Positions 5,007 to 31,190 of a stretch of DNA of 32,689 nucleotides are shown here, in pieces. The notes beneath the pieces are model-generated. The model was not told where the DNA came from. It did no database searches and saw only the letters and a program-made list of their open reading frames with translations. A program made the position numbers and the translations under genes. Numbering within the stretch: position 1 is the first letter of the stretch; each line of letters begins with the position of its first letter. The stretch comes from a virus (Duplodnaviria > Heunggongvirae > Uroviricota > Caudoviricetes), in IMG/VR virus record IMGVR_UViG_2859783438_000003; one strand, 5' to 3'.

Positions 5007-5387
5007 ATGACCGAGCGCATAGAATTTGTTTTACCTTACCCGCCGACGGTGAACACTTACTGGCGTCGTCGTGGCAGCACATATTTTGTATCAAAAGCCG
5101 GGGAGCGTTATCGCCGGGCAGTGGCGCTTATTGTTCGCCAGCAGCGGCTGAAATTAAGCCTGTCCGGAAGGTTGGCAATAAAAATTATTGCAGAACCACC
5201 GGATAAGCGCCGCCGTGACCTGGACAATATTCTGAAAGCGCCGCTGGATGCGCTGACGCATGCGGGGTTGCTAATGGACGATGAGCAGTTTGATGAAATC
5301 AATATCGTTCGTGCTCAGCCAGTATCTGGTGGACGTCTGGGGGTGAAGATTTATCCCATAATGCTTGAAGGGCAGGTCAAAAAATGA
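5007..5387 (+). CDS. rusA: RusA-type Holliday junction resolvase
   Basis: Translation has LPYPPTVNTYWRRRG... and RRRDLDNILKAPLDALT, matching the RusA fold and catalytic Asp region. Confidence 0.85.
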   Translation: MTERIEFVLPYPPTVNTYWRRRGSTYFVSKAGERYRRAVALIVRQQRLKLSLSGRLAIKIIAEPPDKRRRDLDNILKAPLDALTHAGLLMDDEQFDEINIVRAQPVSGGRLGVKIYPIMLEGQVKK

Positions 5388-6205
5388 AACTGGAAGATTT
5401 ACCGAAATACTACTCCCCAAAATCCCCCGGCCTGACTGATGCATCGGCCTCAACGTCGAAAGATGCGCTGAGTATCACTGATGTGATGGCCGCGCAGGGC
5501 ATGACACAGAATCGGGCTGAGATGGGGGTTTCTGCGTTCCTTGGGAAAATGGGCATTAGTATGAATGACAGAGAGCGGGCAACAGAATTGCTGACAGAAT
5601 ATGCACTCAGTCGGTGTGATCGCGTGGCGGCGTTAAGAAAACTCCCGGCAGAAATAAAACCGGCAGTGATGCGTATTATGGCTTCGTATGCGTTTGAAGA
5701 TTATGCCCGTAGCGCGGCGAGCAAAAAACAGTGCCCCTGCTGTCACGGAAAAAAATTTATTGAAAGCGAGGTTTTTACAAACAAGATCCAGTATCCGGAT
5801 GGTAAGCCGCCGGTATGGGCAAAGTGTACGAAAGGTGTGTATCCGTCTTACTGGGAAGAATGGAAAAAAGTCAGGGAGGTGGTAAAAGTTGCCTGTCCGG
5901 AGTGTGGCGGAAAGGGTGAGGTTTCCACCGCCTGTAAGGATTGCCGTGGGCGTGGTGTCGCCATTCATCGTGAAGAGTCGGTAAAACGTGGTATGCCTGT
6001 TATCAGAGACTGCCAGCGTTGTGGTGGTCGTGGCTATGAAAGACTACCATCAACGGAGGCATTTAATGCTATATGCGAGGTGACAAACCAGATAACACGC
6101 GCGTCATGGGAAAAAACAGTTAAGAAATTTTATGATGCGCTGGTGACCCGGTTTGATATTGAAGAAGCATGGGCTGAGCGGCAGTTAAAAAAGGTAACTA
6201 GGTAA
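5384..6205 (+). CDS. late antiterminator Q (Cys-rich, zinc-binding)
   Basis: 273 aa with several CxxC pairs (CPCCHGKK, CPECGGKG, CKDCRGRG, CQRCGGRG); position directly after rusA and before a PR'/tR'-like pair. Confidence 0.7.
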   Translation: MKLEDLPKYYSPKSPGLTDASASTSKDALSITDVMAAQGMTQNRAEMGVSAFLGKMGISMNDRERATELLTEYALSRCDRVAALRKLPAEIKPAVMRIMASYAFEDYARSAASKKQCPCCHGKKFIESEVFTNKIQYPDGKPPVWAKCTKGVYPSYWEEWKKVREVVKVACPECGGKGEVSTACKDCRGRGVAIHREESVKRGMPVIRDCQRCGGRGYERLPSTEAFNAICEVTNQITRASWEKTVKKFYDALVTRFDIEEAWAERQLKKVTR

Positions 6206-6238: not shown

Positions 6239-6287
6239 CGTCATAACGATGGGCGTTTTATGCCTGACGTTAGAAGAGTTTCTACAA

Positions 6288-6309
6288 CCCGCCGCCGAGC
6301 GGGTTTTTT
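6288..6309 (+). terminator. tR'-like intrinsic terminator
   Basis: GC hairpin cccgccgccgagcggg followed by tttttt about 50 nt after the putative start site. Confidence 0.5.
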
Positions 6310-6429: not shown

Positions 6430-6627
6430 ATGCTAAAACAGCAGGATATGACAGAAACCGCCAGAGTGGTGTTTAATGAATTAAGCGTTACCGAACCGGC
6501 GACAGTCGGGGAGATAGCGCAGAATACTTACCTTTCACGCGAACGCTGCCAGTTAATACTGACCCAGCTGGTTATGGCGGGTCTGGCAGACTATCAGTTC
6601 GGTTGTTACAGACGCCTTCCGCAGTGA
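6430..6627 (+). CDS. small putative HTH DNA-binding protein (65 aa)
   Basis: ORF from track; ATVGEIAQNTYLSRERCQLILTQL resembles a helix-turn-helix; followed by hairpin gccttccgcagtgaaggc plus T-run. Confidence 0.4.
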   Translation: MLKQQDMTETARVVFNELSVTEPATVGEIAQNTYLSRERCQLILTQLVMAGLADYQFGCYRRLPQ

Positions 6628-6777
6628 AGGCTTTTTTATTTGTGGTAAATGGGCGGCTGGTGGGTGTTAGGGGCACCCACCAGCCATCTGCTCATGCGTT
6701 GGGTTCACAAGCAAACCTCAGGCCCACTGCTTTGCGCAAAAGCAGAATGAGCCTATCAGAGACAGGCTTAATGATCC

Positions 6778-7836
6778 ATGCTTAATACTGTAAAAATATC
6801 CAGTTGTGAGTTAATCAACGCCGACTGCCTGGAATTTATCCGGTCGTTACCCGAAAATTCTGTTGACCTGATAGTCACGGACCCGCCGTACTTTAAAGTG
6901 AAGCCTGAGGGCTGGGATAACCAGTGGAAGGGCGACGATGATTACCTGAAGTGGCTGGACCAGTGTCTGGCGCAGTTCTGGCGGGTGCTGAAACCTGCCG
7001 GAAGTCTTTACCTGTTCTGTGGTCATCGCCTGGCATCTGATATCGAAATCATGATGCGTGAACGCTTCAGTGTGCTGAACCATATTATCTGGGCGAAGCC
7101 GTCCGGACGCTGGAACGGATGCAACAAGGAAAGCCTGCGGGCGTATTTCCCCGCCACAGAGCGCATTCTGTTCGCGGAACATTATCAGGGGCCGTATCGT
7201 CCGAAAGATGCCGGGTATGCGGCGAAGGGCAGTGCACTGAAACAGCATGTGATGGCCCCGCTGATTTCTTACTTTCGTGATGCGCGAGCTGCCCTGGGGA
7301 TAACGGCAAAACAGATTGCAGATGCCACAGGAAAGAAAAACATGGTGTCGCACTGGTTCAGTGCCGGTCAGTGGCAGTTGCCGAATGAAAGCGATTATCT
7401 GAAATTACAGGCGCTGTTTGCCCGGGTGGCAGAAGAGAAGCATCGGCGTGGTGAACTGGAAAAGCTCCACCACCAGCTGGTGGATACGTATACCTCACTG
7501 AACCGGCAGTATGCGGAGCTGCTGAGTGAATATAAACATCTGCGGCGGTATTTTGGCGTGACGGTGCAGGTGCCGTATACCGATGTGTGGACGCATAAAC
7601 CGGTGCAGTTCTATCCCGGGAAACATCCGTGCGAAAAACCGGCAGAAATGCTGCAGCAGATAATCAGCGCTAGCAGTCGTCCGGGTGACCTGATTGCAGA
7701 TTTTTTCATGGGGTTGGGTTCGACAGTGAAAGCGGCACTGGCGCTCGGGCGTCGTGCAATTGGCGTTGAGCTGGAGACTGAACGTTTTGAGCAGACGGTT
7801 CGGGAAGTACAGGATTTAGTCAGCCAGAACGGATGA
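6778..7836 (+). CDS. DNA amino-methyltransferase (N6-adenine or N4-cytosine), orphan
   Basis: DLIVTDPPYF (motif IV) near the N-terminus and FFMGLGST (SAM-binding FxGxG) near the C-terminus; no restriction endonuclease gene adjacent. Confidence 0.8.
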   Translation: MLNTVKISSCELINADCLEFIRSLPENSVDLIVTDPPYFKVKPEGWDNQWKGDDDYLKWLDQCLAQFWRVLKPAGSLYLFCGHRLASDIEIMMRERFSVLNHIIWAKPSGRWNGCNKESLRAYFPATERILFAEHYQGPYRPKDAGYAAKGSALKQHVMAPLISYFRDARAALGITAKQIADATGKKNMVSHWFSAGQWQLPNESDYLKLQALFARVAEEKHRRGELEKLHHQLVDTYTSLNRQYAELLSEYKHLRRYFGVTVQVPYTDVWTHKPVQFYPGKHPCEKPAEMLQQIISASSRPGDLIADFFMGLGSTVKAALALGRRAIGVELETERFEQTVREVQDLVSQNG

Positions 7837-7876: not shown

Positions 7877-7952
7877 GGCCCTTTAGCTCAGTGGTGAGAG
7901 CGAGCGACTCATAATCGCCAGGTCGCTGGTTCAAATCCAGCAAGGGCCACCA
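7877..7952 (+). tRNA. tRNA with CAU anticodon (Met or lysidine-type Ile2)
   Basis: Cloverleaf folded by hand: 7-bp acceptor ggccctt/aagggcc, anticodon loop ctCATaa, T-loop ttcaaat, CCA encoded. Confidence 0.8.
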
Positions 7953-7959
7953 TCACATA

Positions 7960-8036
7960 CCGCCATTAGCTCATCAGGAAAGAGCGCCAGCCTTCGAAGC
8001 TGGCTGCGCGGGGTTCAAGTCCCCGATGGCGGTCCA
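7960..8036 (+). tRNA. tRNA-Arg (anticodon UCG)
   Basis: Acceptor ccgccat/atggcgg, anticodon stem ccagc/gctgg with loop ctTCGaa, T-loop ttcaagt, CCA encoded. Confidence 0.75.
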
Positions 8037-8049
8037 TTATCTGCATCAT

Positions 8050-8126
8050 GCGTTGTTAGCTCAGCCGGACAGAGCAATTGCCTTCTAAGCAATCGGTCAC
8101 TGGTTCGAATCCAGTACAACGCGCCA
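8050..8126 (+). tRNA. tRNA-Arg (anticodon UCU)
   Basis: Acceptor gcgttgt/acaacgc, anticodon stem attgc/gcaat with loop ctTCTaa, T-loop ttcgaat, CCA encoded. Confidence 0.8.
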
Positions 8127-8140
8127 CACTTATTTTCCCT

Positions 8141-8167
8141 GGCTCGCTTTTGCGGGCCTTTTTTTTT
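8141..8167 (+). terminator. intrinsic terminator after the tRNA array
   Basis: Hairpin ggctcgc-tttt-gcgggcc followed by a 9-nt T-run. Confidence 0.6.
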
Positions 8168-8173
8168 AAATGT

Positions 8174-8400
8174 CTCACAATTCAGACGGTTGACAGTTGT
8201 CTGTTTTGCGGGGAGTTTGTTAAAAGAAACTGGCATGGTGAATCCCCCTGTGCGGAGGGGCAATCAGCGAGTAGGTATATGGGATAATCGCGGATTCAGG
8301 TGCTGGTACTGAATTCACCGGGAGGCACCCGGCATCATGCAATGGCACATAGCGCCACTCTCCAGCCCTCTCCGGAGGGGCTTTTCTGTGCCGGATACAT
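8174..8400 (+). ncRNA. structured non-coding module A (candidate sRNA or regulatory leader)
   Basis: TTGACA hexamer near the 5' end, three GC hairpins (cccct/agggg; ccggg/cccgg; ccctc/gaggg + T-run); paralogous to module B; no conserved ORF. Confidence 0.25.
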
Positions 8401-8640
8401 CACAGTTTCTGGAACCTTAGGTACTACAGTATCAGTCAGGGTGCTATATTTTCAGATGTGATGAAAGCCTGTCAGCAGGCAGGGCGTATCGGAAATGACC
8501 CAGTAGAGAAAACGTTGACTCAGATACCGGTGCTGAGTTACCGGGAAACCGGCATCACATGACCGCTATCCTTCCAGGCCCATCCGCTCCGGTGGGCCTT
8601 TTTACTGCAGAAAACAGGTTCCCCGTTAAATGCTATGTTG

Positions 8641-8880
8641 CTCACAATTCAGTAAGTTGACAGTTGCCTGTCAGACTGGGCATTTGTTAAAAAAATTTCG
8701 CATGGTGAATCCCCCTGAGCGGAGGGGCGACTGGTGACGGTATAATCTCTGATTATCAAAACGAGAATGACGCGGGTTTAGTGGCACCGGGCTGAACTCA
8801 CCGGGAGGCACCCGGCACCATGTGCATGATGATACAGATACGCGGCTTTAGCCCCTCTCCGGAGGGGTTTTCTTGTGGGC
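8641..8880 (+). ncRNA. structured non-coding module B (paralogue of A)
   Basis: Same block order as A (ctcacaattcag, gttgacagttg, tttgttaaaa, gcatggtgaatccccctg.gcggaggggc, caccgggaggcacccggca, cccctctccggagggg + T-run); preceded by its own hairpin + T-run. Confidence 0.25.
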
Positions 8881-9102
8881 AAAAAAAGCCCGCGCTGGGA
8901 GACGCGGGCGGCAAGGAATAAACAATAAAACGTGAAGTAATATTTCAGCTGGCGAATAATACCCCATAGTAATCACTCTGCGCAACTGCGCGGTCTTTTT
9001 CGAATTGCGGGCTGTCGTCTCTCTTCTGCCATTGTCCTGTAACTTCCGGACTTCAGCCCGCTCCTTATTTTACTCACAATATTATCCCGGCCGGGAGGAT
9101 TC

Positions 9103-10956
9103 ATGGCATTTAAACACTATGACGTGGTCAGGGCGGCATCGCCGTCAGACCTTGCGAAACGACTGACACAAAAACTGAAGGAGGGCTGGCAGCCGTTTGG
9201 TAGTCCGGTGGCCATAACCCCTTATACCCTGATGCAGGCGATTGCAGCAGAAGGTGATGTGGTCGTCAGTGGTGCAACTGAGCCGGAGTGGTACTACGTC
9301 ATCGTACTGGCCGGGCAATCCAATGCCATGGCTTACGGTGAAGGTCTTCCGCTTCCGGATTCATACGATGCGCCCCATCCGCGCATTAAGCAACTGGCCC
9401 GTCGTAACACAGTGACTCCCGGTGGTGAAGTATGCGTATTTAACGACATCATTCCTGCTGACCATTGTCTGCATGATGTTCAGGATATGAGTACGATTAA
9501 CCATCCCCGGGCTGACCTGAGCAAAGGGCAGTACGGCTGTGTCGGACAGGGCTTACATATTGCCAAAAAACTGCTTCCGTATATCCCTAATAATGCGGGG
9601 ATCCTGCTGGTACCATGCTGTTGTGGTGGTTCGGCATTCACCCAGGGCACGGAGGGGACATTCAGCGAGTCCACGGGGGCCAGTCAGGATTCGGCTCGCT
9701 GGGGAGTGGGTAAGCCGTTATATCAGGATCTGCTTTTCCGCACGAAGGCAGCATTGCAGAAAAACCCGAAAAACGTTTTGCTGGCGATATGCTGGATGCA
9801 GGGGGAATTCGATATGACGAATGCCAGTTACGCCCAGCAGCCAGCAGCATTTCTTGCAATGGTACAGCAGTTCCGTGCTGACCTTGCCGGGCTGGCGGCG
9901 CAGTGTCACGGTGGAAGTCCGGCATCAGTCCCCTGGATTTGTGGCGACACGACATACGCGTGGAAACAAGAACACGGTACGCAATATGAAGTGGTATATG
10001 GTGCATATAAAGGTAAAGAATCCCAGCAGATTTATTTTGTTCCCTTTATGACCGATGGTAGCGGAGTTAATACACCGACAAACAACCCGTCAGAAGATCC
10101 TGATATTGCCGGGTCTGGTTATTACGGTTCGGCATCCCGAACGAACAAAAACTGGGTATCATCAAATCGCCCGACGCATTTCAGCTCATGGGCGCGTCGT
10201 GGCATTATTCCCGATCGTATGGCAACTGCTATTCTGAACGTAGCCGGTCGCACCTTAGCCTTCATTAGTGGTAAGGCACCGGAAATCAAACCCTCGCCCG
10301 GCGGCGACACGCCATCGGGGCCGTCTGAAGATGCATCCATACGCACAATCTCCCTGTTGCCGACAGCCGGAGACGCTGCTGCGCAGGGCTGGAGCATTAA
10401 GAATGGCGGAGTTCAGTTGTCAGATGGTGTATTTAAGATCACCAAGCAGAGCAATAAAGCCTGGTCCCTGACGCGCCCGGTGGATGACGCAGTCTCCCTG
10501 CTGACACGGGGTGGCAGACTGAGCTGTAAGTTTCGACTGTCAGGCGCACTGACCAACAACCAGTTCGGTCTGGGAATTTATCTGTATACCGATGTAGCGT
10601 TACCTGACGTCGTGGCGATGACCGGGACTGGTAACCCGTTCCTGATGTCGTTCTTCACCCAGACCACAGACGGCAAACTGAATCTGATGCATCACAAGAA
10701 AGCAGGAAACACAAAGTTGGGCGAGTTCGGGAATTACAGTAACGACTGGCTGACGCTGGAGCTGGTGTTCACCGCCGGCAGTGCCACGGTTACTCCGAAA
10801 CTGAATGGAGTGGCTGGCCCGGCATTCCAGGTCATAAAAGACAGTCTGACACTGGGGCTGAATGCGCTGACGCTGACGGATATTACCAAAAATGCAGCGT
10901 ATGGCGTTGAGATAGAAAGTCTGGTGCTGGAGATAAATGCACCGGCATCATCATAA
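9103..10956 (+). CDS. NanS-p-like sialate O-acetylesterase (DUF1737 N-terminal domain + SGNH/SASA esterase core)
   Basis: 617 aa; N-terminus MAFKHYDVVRAASPSDLAKRL... and VIVLAGQSNAMAYGEG with the SGNH-type Ser; sits where prophage nanS-p genes sit downstream of the Q-tRNA block. Confidence 0.8.
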   Translation: MAFKHYDVVRAASPSDLAKRLTQKLKEGWQPFGSPVAITPYTLMQAIAAEGDVVVSGATEPEWYYVIVLAGQSNAMAYGEGLPLPDSYDAPHPRIKQLARRNTVTPGGEVCVFNDIIPADHCLHDVQDMSTINHPRADLSKGQYGCVGQGLHIAKKLLPYIPNNAGILLVPCCCGGSAFTQGTEGTFSESTGASQDSARWGVGKPLYQDLLFRTKAALQKNPKNVLLAICWMQGEFDMTNASYAQQPAAFLAMVQQFRADLAGLAAQCHGGSPASVPWICGDTTYAWKQEHGTQYEVVYGAYKGKESQQIYFVPFMTDGSGVNTPTNNPSEDPDIAGSGYYGSASRTNKNWVSSNRPTHFSSWARRGIIPDRMATAILNVAGRTLAFISGKAPEIKPSPGGDTPSGPSEDASIRTISLLPTAGDAAAQGWSIKNGGVQLSDGVFKITKQSNKAWSLTRPVDDAVSLLTRGGRLSCKFRLSGALTNNQFGLGIYLYTDVALPDVVAMTGTGNPFLMSFFTQTTDGKLNLMHHKKAGNTKLGEFGNYSNDWLTLELVFTAGSATVTPKLNGVAGPAFQVIKDSLTLGLNALTLTDITKNAAYGVEIESLVLEINAPASS

Positions 10957-30920: not shown

Positions 30921-31190
30921 ATGCTGCCGCAGCATAGCGATATTGAAATAGCCTGGTATGCTTCGATACAGCAGGAGCCGAATGGCTGGAAGACCGTCAC
31001 CACACAGTTCTACATCCAGGAATTCAGTGAGCATATTGCGCCACTTCAGGATGCTGTAGATCTGGAGATCGCAACGGAGGAAGAAAACTCGTTGCTGGAA
31101 GCCTGGAAGAAGTATCGGGTGTTGCTGAACCGTGTTGATACATCAACTGCACCTGATATTGAGTGGCCGGAAGAACCAGACACAATGTAA
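30921..31190 (+). pseudogene. tail fibre assembly protein fragment (C-terminal half only)
   Basis: Ends ...[37 protein letters not shown] like Tfa C-termini; lacks the conserved N-terminal ...KNI.AGNP.. region. Confidence 0.55.

Follow-up and report, generated by a model that had tools for sequence, protein, structure and literature searches.

Tandem STnc100-type small RNA genes between the tRNAs and nanS-p of a lambdoid prophage

Introduction

What occupies the interval between the tRNA genes and nanS-p of a lambdoid prophage, in the region where Stx phages carry stxAB? We addressed this question for one window, by which we mean the whole stretch of 32,689 nt of DNA that was analysed. A preliminary description had reported two paralogous structured non-coding modules there (8174-8400 and 8641-8880), and had offered two readings of them, a duplicated pair of prophage sRNAs or Q-readthrough leaders of nanS-p. 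We conclude, with a probability of about 0.8, that genes for small regulatory RNAs form an array in this interval, which belongs to the 'moron' region of a lambdoid prophage's late operon. With the same confidence, we take the array to be made up of three tandem plus-strand STnc100-type genes (~8233-8388, 8456-8604 and 8700-8875) and one convergent sRNA gene on the minus strand (8881-9062).

STnc100, known as EcOnc27 in Sakai and as sRNA103 in EDL933, is a prophage sRNA that is bound by Hfq and is related to PasD1 and PasD2 of EPEC; the family is described in PMC4104026, PMC5331693, PMC7873438, PMC12711010 and bioRxiv 10.64898/2026.05.13.724894. EDL933 carries 11 copies of STnc100, all of them with RNA-seq reads and one, STnc100_4, with a Northern blot (PMC5331693). 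EcOnc27 was crosslinked to Hfq (Hfq-CRAC) and detected by Northern blotting (PMC4104026, PMC7873438), and in Salmonella LT2 the binding of RpoD at STnc100 promoter regions was seen by ChIP-exo (PMC10794520). For STnc100 proper, the putative links to fimZ and espA come from overexpression and in-silico prediction.

Results

The genes around the array follow the order Q, methylase, tRNAs, sRNAs, SASA esterase, holin. Domain matches agree with the Q, tRNA, nanS-p, holin layout of the preliminary description: Q carries PF03589, nanS-p encodes a 617-aa protein (9103-10956) with the domains DUF1737, SASA and DUF6645, and a P21-type holin is found downstream of nanS-p. Three tRNAs lie at 7877-8126, the last of which is tRNA-Arg(tct). 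As had been claimed, the interval contains no Stx-like ORF, and no ORF in it has a significant Pfam match. Its position is that of RF02076 (STnc100), the late/moron region of lambdoid prophages of Enterobacteriaceae. Of 5426 complete E. coli genomes, 353 have the full interval; in UTI89, S88, IHE3034, NU14 and ATCC 11775 it is 99.3% identical to that of the window. Homologues are located in Stx2 phages and E. coli prophages. A search of genome contigs (596 Gb) with the 16-mer GCATGGTGAATCCYCC gave, among the matches listed, only chance ones in unrelated phyla, the pattern being too short; a longer gapped pattern, used to search viral contigs, succeeded where the 16-mer had failed. PasA and PasC were sought in the stretch from nanS-p to the holin by means of their published Northern probes, which had no match there with up to 3 mismatches.

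Are the two modules copies of one element? In a global alignment, 8174-8400 and 8641-8880 shared 176 matches over 257 columns (68.5%; 83.8% over ungapped columns), and the alignment score was 218 compared to 38 ± 9.5 in shuffles (z = 18.9). The modules are thus paralogous, and the earlier figure of roughly 70 percent identity is right and far above chance. The shared blocks also sit where they had been placed, in three families of direct repeats: D1 (8174-8261/8641-8728, 82%), D3 (8309-8339/8792-8822, 94%) and D2 (8366-8390/8853-8877, 88%). The block CTCACAATTCAG forms the left edge of unit 1 on the plus strand (8174-8185) and is repeated at 8641-8652.

Both modules are copies of STnc100, a catalogued and already known prophage small RNA. 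They match the full Rfam model RF02076 (positions 1-206) well above its gathering score of 47 bits: the first module, here unit 1, from 8204 to 8393 with 123.6 bits (E 6e-27), and the second, here unit 3, from 8671 to 8880 with 161 bits (E 2e-36). The suggestion of duplicated prophage sRNAs is therefore borne out, whereas the novelty implied by the title of the preliminary description is absent, the family being in Rfam and described repeatedly. The units resemble STnc100/EcOnc27/sRNA103 in their helices and in their prophage position, with the Q/tRNA region on one side and nanS-p or the lysis genes on the other.

The predicted RNA of unit 1 (8233-8388, plus strand) is about 156 nt long, its ends being placed from PasD2 (5′) and from the terminator scan. 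It consists of helix P1 (GCAUGGUG/CAUCAUGC), hairpins P2, P4 and P5, a 3′ single-stranded stretch AAUGGCACAUAGCGCCACUCUCCAG, and a terminator at 8364-8382 with the tail UUUUCUGUG; the 5′ arm of this terminator has one C fewer than in UTI89 and most homologues. Unit 3 (8700-8875, plus strand, about 176 nt), the orthologue of EcOnc27/sRNA103 of Stx2 phages, has the 3′ single-stranded stretch GUGCAUGAUGAUACAGAUACGCGGCUUUAG and a terminator at 8850-8869 with the tail UUUUCUUG. Each module thus ends in a terminating hairpin, as had been noticed. The U-tails of both units are short and interrupted, and weaker than typical Hfq-binding 3′ ends. A terminator before each module was also described correctly. 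The first, with its hairpin at 8141-8158, is the intrinsic terminator 3′ of tRNA-Arg(tct) (8141-8167, plus strand; GGCTCGC-TTTT-GCGGGCC then T9; a stem of 7 pairs, 6 of them G-C, in the terminator scan), and the second lies at 8576-8599 with T5. The scan found 12 terminator-like hairpin sites in the region compared to 1.4 ± 1.2 in shuffles.

Which promoters would the units use? The hexamer TTGACA, to which the preliminary description had pointed, is present at 8190-8195 and 8657-8662. It is probably not a -35 element, and we rejected it as such: 25 nt separate it from the -10 hexamer, and conservation also speaks against it. The likely promoter is instead the conserved extended -10 TGnTAAAA. 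In unit 1 the predicted sigma-70 promoter (8197-8226, plus strand) has a -35-like TTGTCT (8197-8202), an 18-nt spacer and the extended -10 TG-t-TAAAAG (8218-8226). The predicted promoter of unit 3 (8664-8693, plus strand), with a -35-like TTGCCT (8664-8669) and the extended -10 TG-t-TAAAAA (8685-8693), has the same conservation and geometry. Of 135 family instances, 87 have TGnTAWAA with its first base at -15 relative to the G of GCAUGG, and 86 have CACAATTCAG at -57 from the RNA start; the columns of TTTGTTAAAA are at least 90% conserved in alignment A1. The promoter of unit 1 and its putative +1 at 8233 were placed by geometry, and this +1 matches the reported 5′ end of PasD2, whose transcript start, derived from its size on Northern blots and from RNA coverage, lies at 741157, on the corresponding G of GCAUGGUG (Table S6, PMC8550237).

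We then asked whether the structure is kept in the family. Across 42 diverse homologues, including both modules, 95.2% of cells were paired in the Rfam-type structure, compared to 37-50% when the partners were slid. Nine pairs had changed on both sides, and none of 500 shuffles reached the observed covariation score. The consensus structure is thus kept, with compensatory changes, across homologues, which the preliminary description had proposed as a check. The changes are located in P4 and the terminator. The 5′ strand of P1 and P2 were unable to vary because the search pattern fixed both, and the informative covariation is that of P4, the terminator and the middle unit described below. The arrangement is that of RF02076, with P1 enclosing the hairpins and the terminator hairpin following. 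RNAalifold, run on alignment A1, proposed an alternative 5′ core in which a CCCC run pairs with GGG of the P5 region; this core was set aside because the Rfam-type P1 is an 8-bp perfect complement, appears in the minimum free energy (MFE) folds of units 2 (the middle unit) and 3, and has four compensatory pairs in the middle unit. The MAFFT alignment A3 misplaces P2 of the middle unit and the 3′ strand of PasD2 P1, and covariance-model alignments were used there. Folded as single sequences, unit 1 (z = -0.38) and unit 3 (z = -1.28) had energies no better than those of shuffles. Unit 1 deviates from the consensus in its MFE fold, and the MFE fold of unit 3 shows P1, P2, P4, P5 and the terminator.

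The MFE folds of units 2 and 3 leave the bases that separate P1 from the terminator unpaired. This segment occurs in about 19 alleles, which recombination has combined with 7 alleles of the middle region. There is a clear division in the family between a scaffold that stays constant and a 3′ stretch that varies and is reshuffled from phage to phage.

Two modules had been counted, and the related units are three. The spacer between the modules (8432-8605) is a diverged copy, and 8456-8604 (plus strand, about 149 nt) is a diverged third STnc100-type unit with its own predicted extended -10 promoter and its own terminator. The extended -10, TG-c-TATATT (8442-8450, plus strand), as read from the sequence, stands in the same position relative to the 5′ strand of P1 as in units 1 and 3. 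P1 of this unit is AUGUGAUG/CAUCACAU, P2 is GCCUG/CAGGC, P4 is GACUCAG../..CUGAGUU and P5 is CCGG-GAAA-CCGG; the single-stranded stretch GACCGCUAUCCUUCCA and the terminator (8576-8599, with U5) follow. All 8 of the 8 pairs of P1 are Watson-Crick, with 4 double-sided changes compared to units 1 and 3, and both the MFE and the centroid fold show the family architecture (z = -2.5). The match to RF02076 runs end to end with 30.1 bits (E 4e-5 to 7e-4). As this is below the gathering score that units 1 and 3 exceed, we file the middle unit as a diverged relative of STnc100 and not as a member. It has two variants and is carried by 673 of 5426 complete E. coli genomes; lying under the Rfam threshold, it is left unannotated.

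Downstream of unit 3, the predicted convergent sRNA gene lies on the minus strand at 8881-9062, with a terminator at 8909-8888 followed by U7. It was defined by homology to an EPEC candidate, from which the 5′ end of its long form was also taken; a short form of about 55-60 nt is possible. Most columns aligned with the minus strand of E2348/69 (NC_011601 1444797-1444978) are identical. That locus is the EPEC RIL-seq sRNA candidate 'E2348C_1409.E2348C_1408.IGR', with the target motif GGCAAGG/GGCAGGG. Just 5′ of its terminator, the minus-strand gene has a seed-like CCUUGCC (the complement of plus-strand 8910-8916), which is complementary to this motif; CCTTGCC and the terminator are both conserved in the alignment. 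Identity and seed together equate the gene with the EPEC candidate. Judged by its sequence, the predicted gene would belong to the EcOnc08/21/42 group, the EcOnc equivalence being that of the note in Table S6.

Could the minus-strand gene be AsxR or AgvB? These are RNAs of 51-60 nt with a conserved 42-nt 3′ region, and we required a covariance-model match for them. Neither AsxR (RF02703) nor AgvB (RF02702) was found in the window at the gathering score or at E up to 5, whereas the same Rfam search finds AsxR in the minus-strand slot of Sakai Sp5 at 88.1 bits. We rejected this identity, as position and orientation alone are common to them. Like AsxR, the gene sits in the same slot and is convergent with an STnc100-type gene, terminator to terminator, and the EcOnc27 locus has the same pairing with a convergent minus-strand sRNA. 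The architecture is also that of the 'sRNA dyads' that occur in at least 8 Sakai prophages (Tree et al. 2014). The gene differs from AsxR and AgvB in its seed-like sequence, CCUUGCC.

Do the modules occupy the slot of stxAB? In both Stx2 phages that were compared, Sakai Sp5 and an Stx2a phage, the tRNAs are followed in turn by stx2A, stx2B, STnc100, the minus-strand sRNA slot and a nanS-p homologue, and STnc100 coexists there with stx. The STnc100 copy of Sp5 begins 75 nt past stx2B, with the same sRNA dyad 3′ of stx2B, and downstream of stx2B the homology with the window starts at the CACAATTCAG block just upstream of module 2. Unit 3 and the Sp5 copy have a common promoter, scaffold and left boundary. 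Therefore module 2 is the resident neighbour of stx and not its replacement: it is the orthologue of the sRNA beside stx. The proposal that the modules fill the toxin slot holds for module 1 and the middle unit, which lie there, and not for module 2. This removes a false lead, since the modules are not an unknown stand-in for Shiga toxin and their catalogued relatives adjoin stx. In contrast to Sp5, which has one copy, the window has three units in tandem at a pitch of ~230 nt, and none of the 11 listed copies of EDL933 is less than 25 kb from another (PMC5331693). The 3′ single-stranded stretches of the window units also differ from that of EcOnc27.

PasD1 and PasD2 of EPEC E2348/69 (Pearl Mizrahi et al. 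2021; Zhu, Shabalina and Storz 2026 preprint) share the scaffold of the window units. They score 41.4 and 37.7 bits against the STnc100 model, have the same 5′ start GCAUGGUGAAUCC and a similar length (172-173 nt), and likewise lie upstream of a sialate esterase or a holin. Their stability depends on Hfq, and they have RIL-seq partners (PMC8550237). The PasD seed UGUGAG, located just 5′ of the terminator in an RNA for which a Northern blot exists, is absent from the three window unit sequences, and the 3′ regions of the window units gave no alignment with PasD2. The window units are related to PasD at the level of the scaffold only, and are not PasD copies. The promoters differ as well, PasD having a TTGACT -35 with TTTATTAAAA compared to the TG-extended -10 of the window units, and the PasD copies are distal (at least 74 kb apart) and not tandem according to the preprint, whereas the window units are in tandem.

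Discussion

How might such an array work? Each plus-strand unit would be a gene complete in itself, transcribed from a sigma-70 promoter of the extended -10 type (TGnTAAAA or TGnTATATT). Its product would be a structured RNA of about 150-175 nt in which the long-range 8-bp P1 closes three hairpins, and P1 would be followed by a single-stranded stretch of 16-30 nt and a Rho-independent terminator. To judge from their homologues EcOnc27/sRNA103 and PasD1/PasD2, the units would be transcribed from the prophage in lysogens, and their RNAs would be bound by Hfq and would be expected to act in trans through base pairing. Discrete transcripts, Hfq binding and the 5′ end are taken from papers on these homologues, and from them we infer the expression of the window copies, the position of their seeds and the existence of targets. 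Because the PasD seed lies just 5′ of the terminator, the single-stranded stretch there would be the seed of each unit, and as three different stretches are carried by a common scaffold, different targets may be expected. The unit terminators imply that nanS-p and the downstream lysis genes would be reached only by Q-antiterminated transcription.

The array resembles OmrA/OmrB and PrrF1/PrrF2, which the Zhu et al. preprint cites, in that these too are adjacent paralogous Hfq sRNA genes with separate promoters and terminators. Those pairs belong to the core genome, are unrelated in sequence and mostly have the seed in common; the window units, in contrast, have a common scaffold and differing putative seeds.

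A broader model is tentative, and we consider it rather doubtful as a whole. In it, a fixed Hfq-binding scaffold (P1 to P5) carries interchangeable 3′ seed cassettes that lambdoid phages shuffle through recombination at conserved blocks, the three units and the convergent sRNA give one prophage several host-directed regulators, the middle unit is a functional third subfamily that Rfam misses, and CTCACAAT might link the sRNAs to the control of nanS-p. CTCACAAT occurs three times in the 32.7-kb window, always on the plus strand and within the interval, and matches the CUCACA motif of PasD RIL-seq targets. Its third copy (9073-9080) is in the nanS-p 5′ leader (9073-9102, plus strand), which also holds the RBS GGGAGGA before the start codon at 9103 and is invariant in five loci.

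Could the units instead be cis-acting leaders or insulator terminators that keep the late genes silent in the lysogen until Q readthrough and have no function in trans? The interval lies inside the Q-dependent late transcription unit, and a tR′-like terminator hairpin is present at 6286-6305, about 80 nt past Q. Five plus-strand terminator-like hairpins lie between the last tRNA and the start of nanS-p (at 8141, 8364, 8576, 8850 and 8978), the last of them (8978-8999; CTGCGC-AACT-GCGCGG then TCTTTTT) being conserved in Sp5 and in alignment A2. However, a terminator requires a hairpin and a T-run alone, and not a conserved and covarying multi-helix scaffold of 130 nt. A separate conserved promoter precedes each unit, the 5′ end of PasD2 falls at the base predicted from the promoter, and in cultures without induction homologues build up as discrete RNAs associated with Hfq. 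Moreover, the same RNA stands before different genes, before nanS-p here and directly before the holin in EPEC prophage PP4. We therefore think this explanation unlikely, and the Q-readthrough leaders for nanS-p of the preliminary description are not the best reading; the insulating effect is real and is better seen as a by-product of the sRNA genes.

Short transcripts of the lambda 6S RNA/StxS type start at PR′ immediately downstream of Q and end at tR′. This type was excluded for the units, which lie 2.0-2.5 kb downstream of Q, with the methylase gene and the three tRNAs in between and the tR′-like hairpin as a separate element.

The conserved blocks might also be mainly homologous 'linker' sequences for the exchange of moron cassettes such as stx, the RNA being incidental. 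The strong mosaicism of the family (about 19 3′ alleles × 7 middle alleles), the beginning of the window-Sp5 homology exactly at the CACAATTCAG block and the restriction of the three CTCACAAT copies to the interval are in line with this idea, and unequal recombination between the blocks could yield tandem copies. It leaves unexplained the compensatory base changes that keep the helices, the conserved promoter geometry and the Hfq binding of the transcripts, and we regard it as quite improbable as the main explanation. The two ideas are compatible, as the scaffold of the sRNAs may double as a recombination substrate.

Least probable is that the modules encode small proteins or dual-function RNAs on either strand: ribosome footprints occur on some of the STnc100 copies of EDL933 (with a ribosome coverage value of at most 3.21, PMC5331693), a putative Shine-Dalgarno 'tatgggata' of EDL933 is also in unit 1, the minus-strand ORFs 8015-8263 and 8671-8811 match the function-unassigned families PHROG 27294 and 24488, and in UTI89 the RefSeq annotation of unit 1 includes a pseudogene for a 'hypothetical protein', but no frame on either strand is open across 88 unique homologues (shortest stop-free runs 11-20 codons, runs of at least 50 codons in 5-39% of sequences by frame), the internal ATGs are followed by a hypervariable stretch whose indel lengths are not divisible by three, Pfam matches are absent, and the PHROG matches span just 27-30 residues, the simplest explanation of these families being automatic ORF calls over conserved RNA-gene DNA. 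The short ORFs of the modules are not conserved, as had been stated, although their lengths differ from the 25 and 11 codons given: those that begin with ATG have 27 aa (8337-8420) and 33 aa (8820-8921). Together with the STnc100 match and the covarying structure, the lack of a frame open across homologues upholds the earlier preference for RNA over protein genes.

For the sRNA units of the window, PasD1 and PasD2 are the best experimental anchors. Strains like UTI89, in which three different versions lie side by side, could be convenient for questions about the targets of STnc100 RNAs.

Identity and setting of the two modules

Both modules in the interval between the tRNA array and nanS-p (about 8127-9102) are members of a known sRNA family in a known location. 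In an Rfam scan of the whole window they were full-length matches to RF02076, 'Gammaproteobacterial sRNA STnc100' (8204-8393, 123.6 bits; 8671-8880, 161 bits; gathering score 47). The preliminary description had presented them as paralogues sharing ordered blocks, each preceded and closed by a terminator, and this was borne out. In a global alignment, module 1 (8174-8400) and module 2 (8641-8880) were 68.5% identical when every column is counted and 83.8% identical when gapped ones are left out, with z = 18.9 relative to shuffles. The direct-repeat families D1, D3 and D2 reproduced the blocks in their places, and each module was preceded by and ended in a plus-strand terminator-like hairpin. 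A terminator scan returned 12 terminator-like sites in the region versus 1.4 expected.

Members of the family are expressed elsewhere: E. coli O157:H7 EDL933 has 11 STnc100 copies, all with RNA-seq reads and one confirmed by Northern blot (PMC5331693), and the Sakai copy adjoining stx2 is the Hfq-crosslinked sRNA EcOnc27, named sRNA103 in EDL933 (PMC12711010; PMC7873438). The validated EPEC sRNAs PasD1 and PasD2 are structural relatives of STnc100 (bioRxiv 10.64898/2026.05.13.724894); their scores against the STnc100 model (37.7 and 41.4 bits) reproduced this claim.

The gene surroundings that had been supposed (Q, tRNAs, a nanS-p-type esterase and a holin) were confirmed, the protein genes by domain content. 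The interval is bounded by the last tRNA, tRNA-Arg (tct, 8050-8126), and by a 617-aa ORF starting at 9103 with DUF1737, SASA and DUF6645 esterase domains of the nanS-p type. On the tRNA side the domain search placed Q (5384-6205, PF03589) accompanied by a DUF968 protein and RusA, with a DNA methylase (6778-7836) between Q and the three tRNAs; a P21-type holin and a DUF1327 protein lie with the esterase on the far side. ARAGORN called the tRNA at 7877-7952 tRNA-Met (anticodon cat), and the UTI89 and Sakai records list the identical gene as tRNA-Ile of the ileZ type, its CAU presumably modified to lysidine. A strong plus-strand terminator-like hairpin (AACCCGC..GCGGGTT then TTTT, 6286-6305) stands ~80 nt 3' of the Q stop codon, where tR' would be expected, together with a short PR' transcript of the lambda 6S/StxS type; a second one follows at 6614-6631. 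Elsewhere in the window, a plus-strand match to the sok antitoxin RNA (2795-2970, RF01794, 112.4 bits) indicates a putative toxin-antitoxin locus of the hok/sok type in the early region of the prophage, and IS009 was matched at 30944-31147 on the plus strand (RF02111, 129.2 bits versus a gathering score of 117); IS009 is frequent near PasB according to the Zhu et al. preprint (bioRxiv 10.64898/2026.05.13.724894).

Structure and coding potential

Homologues were recovered from 120 viral contigs with a gapped pattern built around the invariant 5' core. Together with reference loci these gave 135 full-length instances, of which 88 were unique, in 40 clusters at 93% identity; 42 representatives, including both modules, were aligned for structure. 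The Rfam-type structure paired 95.2% of cells in this alignment versus 37-50% with slid partners; nine pairs had changes on both sides, and the observed covariation score was reached in 0 of 500 shuffles. The informative changes fall in the terminator and in hairpin P4, where 14 sequences replace G-C by A-U and 10 replace A-U by G-C or U-A. As the search pattern fixed hairpin P2 and the 5' strand of P1, the long-range 8-bp helix enclosing P2, P4 and P5, their invariance is uninformative. The folding energies of the two modules as single sequences were unremarkable. The 5' arm of the module 1 terminator (AG-CCCTC, 8364-8382) has one C fewer than AGCCCCTC of UTI89 and most homologues, which shortens the stem and may weaken termination in this genome.

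The preference for RNA over protein was also right: no frame on either strand stayed open throughout the 88 unique homologues, and the ORFs of the interval had no significant Pfam match. Two minus-strand ORFs matched PHROG families with no function assigned in the database, one over tRNA and sRNA DNA (8015-8263, PHROG 27294, E 2.5e-16) and one over sRNA DNA (8671-8811, PHROG 24488, E 4e-11). The matches span just 27-30 residues, and in UTI89 a RefSeq pseudogene lies under module 1; all are probably automatic ORF calls over conserved RNA-gene DNA. Some EDL933 STnc100 copies carry ribosome footprints (PMC5331693), which keeps an improbable small-peptide reading alive.

Predicted promoters and RNA ends

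In the 42-sequence alignment, TTTGTTAAAA forms a block with conservation of 90% or more. In 87 of the 135 instances TGnTAWAA begins at -15 from the G of GCAUGGUG, so that the hexamer of a TG-extended -10 falls at -12 to -7. For PasD2, RNA coverage and Northern size set the 5' end at 741157 (PMC8550237), exactly the equivalent G. By homology, the RNAs would span about 8233-8388 (module 1), 8456-8604 (middle unit) and 8700-8875 (module 2), so that the first 29 RF02076 model positions would be promoter DNA. The TTGACA hexamers noted earlier are present (8190-8195 and 8657-8662) but ill-placed, 25 nt from the -10; the -35-like elements TTGTCT and TTGCCT are better placed, with an 18-nt spacer.

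A third, diverged unit

At a relaxed threshold, 8432-8605 matched the whole STnc100 model with 30.1 bits; the E value was 7e-4 when 3.9 kb was searched and 4e-5 when 251 nt was. The preliminary description had noticed only the terminator of this middle unit. Four features argue that the match is not noise. An extended -10 (TG-c-TATATT, 8442-8450) is positioned with respect to the RNA body as in the modules; the terminator (8576-8599, 9 pairs, T5) is the strongest of the interval; 8455-8606 folded alone gave agreeing MFE and centroid structures with the family architecture (long-range helix, three internal hairpins, single-stranded stretch and terminator; z = -2.5); and the long-range helix, AUGUGAUG/CAUCACAU versus GCAUGGUG/CACCAUGC in canonical units, has 8 of 8 Watson-Crick pairs, four of which differ on both sides from the canonical ones. 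The middle unit is thus the missing test for P1.

Of 5426 complete E. coli genomes, 673 have the unit, as two variants (100% and ~91% identity); five phage records have it too, among them PhiR5_2, in which it likewise lies between two STnc100 matches. PhiR5_2 was the only phage record covering most of the interval. Parts of the interval matched 2728 of the 5426 genomes and 353 covered at least 80% of its 976 nt; the closest among the matches listed included ExPEC UTI89, S88, IHE3034 and NU14 and the type strain ATCC 11775 (99.3-99.4% identity). Paired units in viral contigs were 468 nt apart at seven loci and 483 nt at two. A different tandem, two full STnc100-type units head to tail and 267 nt apart with no middle unit between them, was found in IMGVR_UViG_2698536657_000017 (1392-1687); its spacing differs from the 467-483 nt of window-type tandems.

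Relation to stx and the opposite-strand gene

We compared the interval with two Stx2 phages. Sakai prophage Sp5 has the order ileZ-argN-argO, stx2A, stx2B, STnc100 (207.7 bits, beginning 75 nt past stx2B), AsxR on the opposite strand and a nanS-p homologue; an Oslovirus-type Stx2a phage has the same order of tRNAs, stx2A, stx2B, STnc100 and nanS-p homologue. Homology between the window and Sp5 starts at CACAATTCAG, just upstream of module 2, so module 2 is a resident sRNA also found in Stx phages. The proposal that both modules occupy the stxAB slot therefore stands for module 1 and the stretch after it and fails for module 2, which is also present beside stx. Among phage records, Stx phages matched the module 2 half of the interval and left the rest unmatched.

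A minus-strand terminator (8909-8888, U7) lies directly after module 2. The gene it belongs to differs at few aligned positions from NC_011601 1444797-1444978, an EPEC RIL-seq sRNA candidate whose homology to EcOnc08/21/42 its authors note (PMC8550237), and just 5' of the terminator it has a conserved heptamer CCUUGCC that complements the target motif GGCA(A/G)GG. Although it shares the slot of AsxR in Sp5, its sequence matched neither the AsxR nor the AgvB Rfam model, and both identities were rejected; in the Stx2a phage, the minus-strand region past STnc100 aligned with the window's counterpart and not with AsxR. A review places StxS on one side of the stx genes and the AsxR/EcOnc27 dyad on the other ('bookended'), with dyads in at least eight Sakai prophages (PMC7873438). 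With its minus-strand gene in the AsxR slot beside module 2, the interval corresponds to such a 'dyad' (Tree et al.) plus two extra STnc100-type genes upstream.

A constant scaffold and a variable 3' stretch

P1, P2, P4 and P5 were near-constant in the alignment, whereas the stretch that links the 3' strand of P1 to the terminator had ~19 discrete alleles, joined with 7 middle-region alleles in many combinations. The PasD seed UGUGAG sits in exactly this stretch, which is unpaired in folds of the middle unit and module 2 and has three different sequences in the three window units. We infer that it serves as the seed and that each of the three RNAs would have targets of its own.

The octamer CTCACAAT has exactly three copies in the 32.7-kb window. 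All are on the plus strand and lie within a 900-nt interval: upstream of the RNAs of modules 1 and 2 (8174-8181 and 8641-8648) and in the nanS-p leader (9073-9080), 23 nt ahead of the ATG. About one copy is expected, and 9 of 100 shuffles reached three. CUCACA is enriched in RIL-seq targets of PasD, with its seed UGUGAG (PMC8550237 supplement), and the octamer may mark a module boundary, serve as a target site or be coincidental. At the 3' end of nanS-p, GATAGAAAGTCTGGTGCTGGAGATAAATGCA (10910-10940, plus strand) equals a PasA RIL-seq target site of EPEC (the E2348C_1246 site); no PasA or PasC gene was detectable in the window using the published probe sequences.

The remaining interest is modest: it lies in a third paralogue below the Rfam threshold, whose compensatory changes are clear, and also in the tandem arrangement and the organisation of the family as a scaffold plus a variable stretch.
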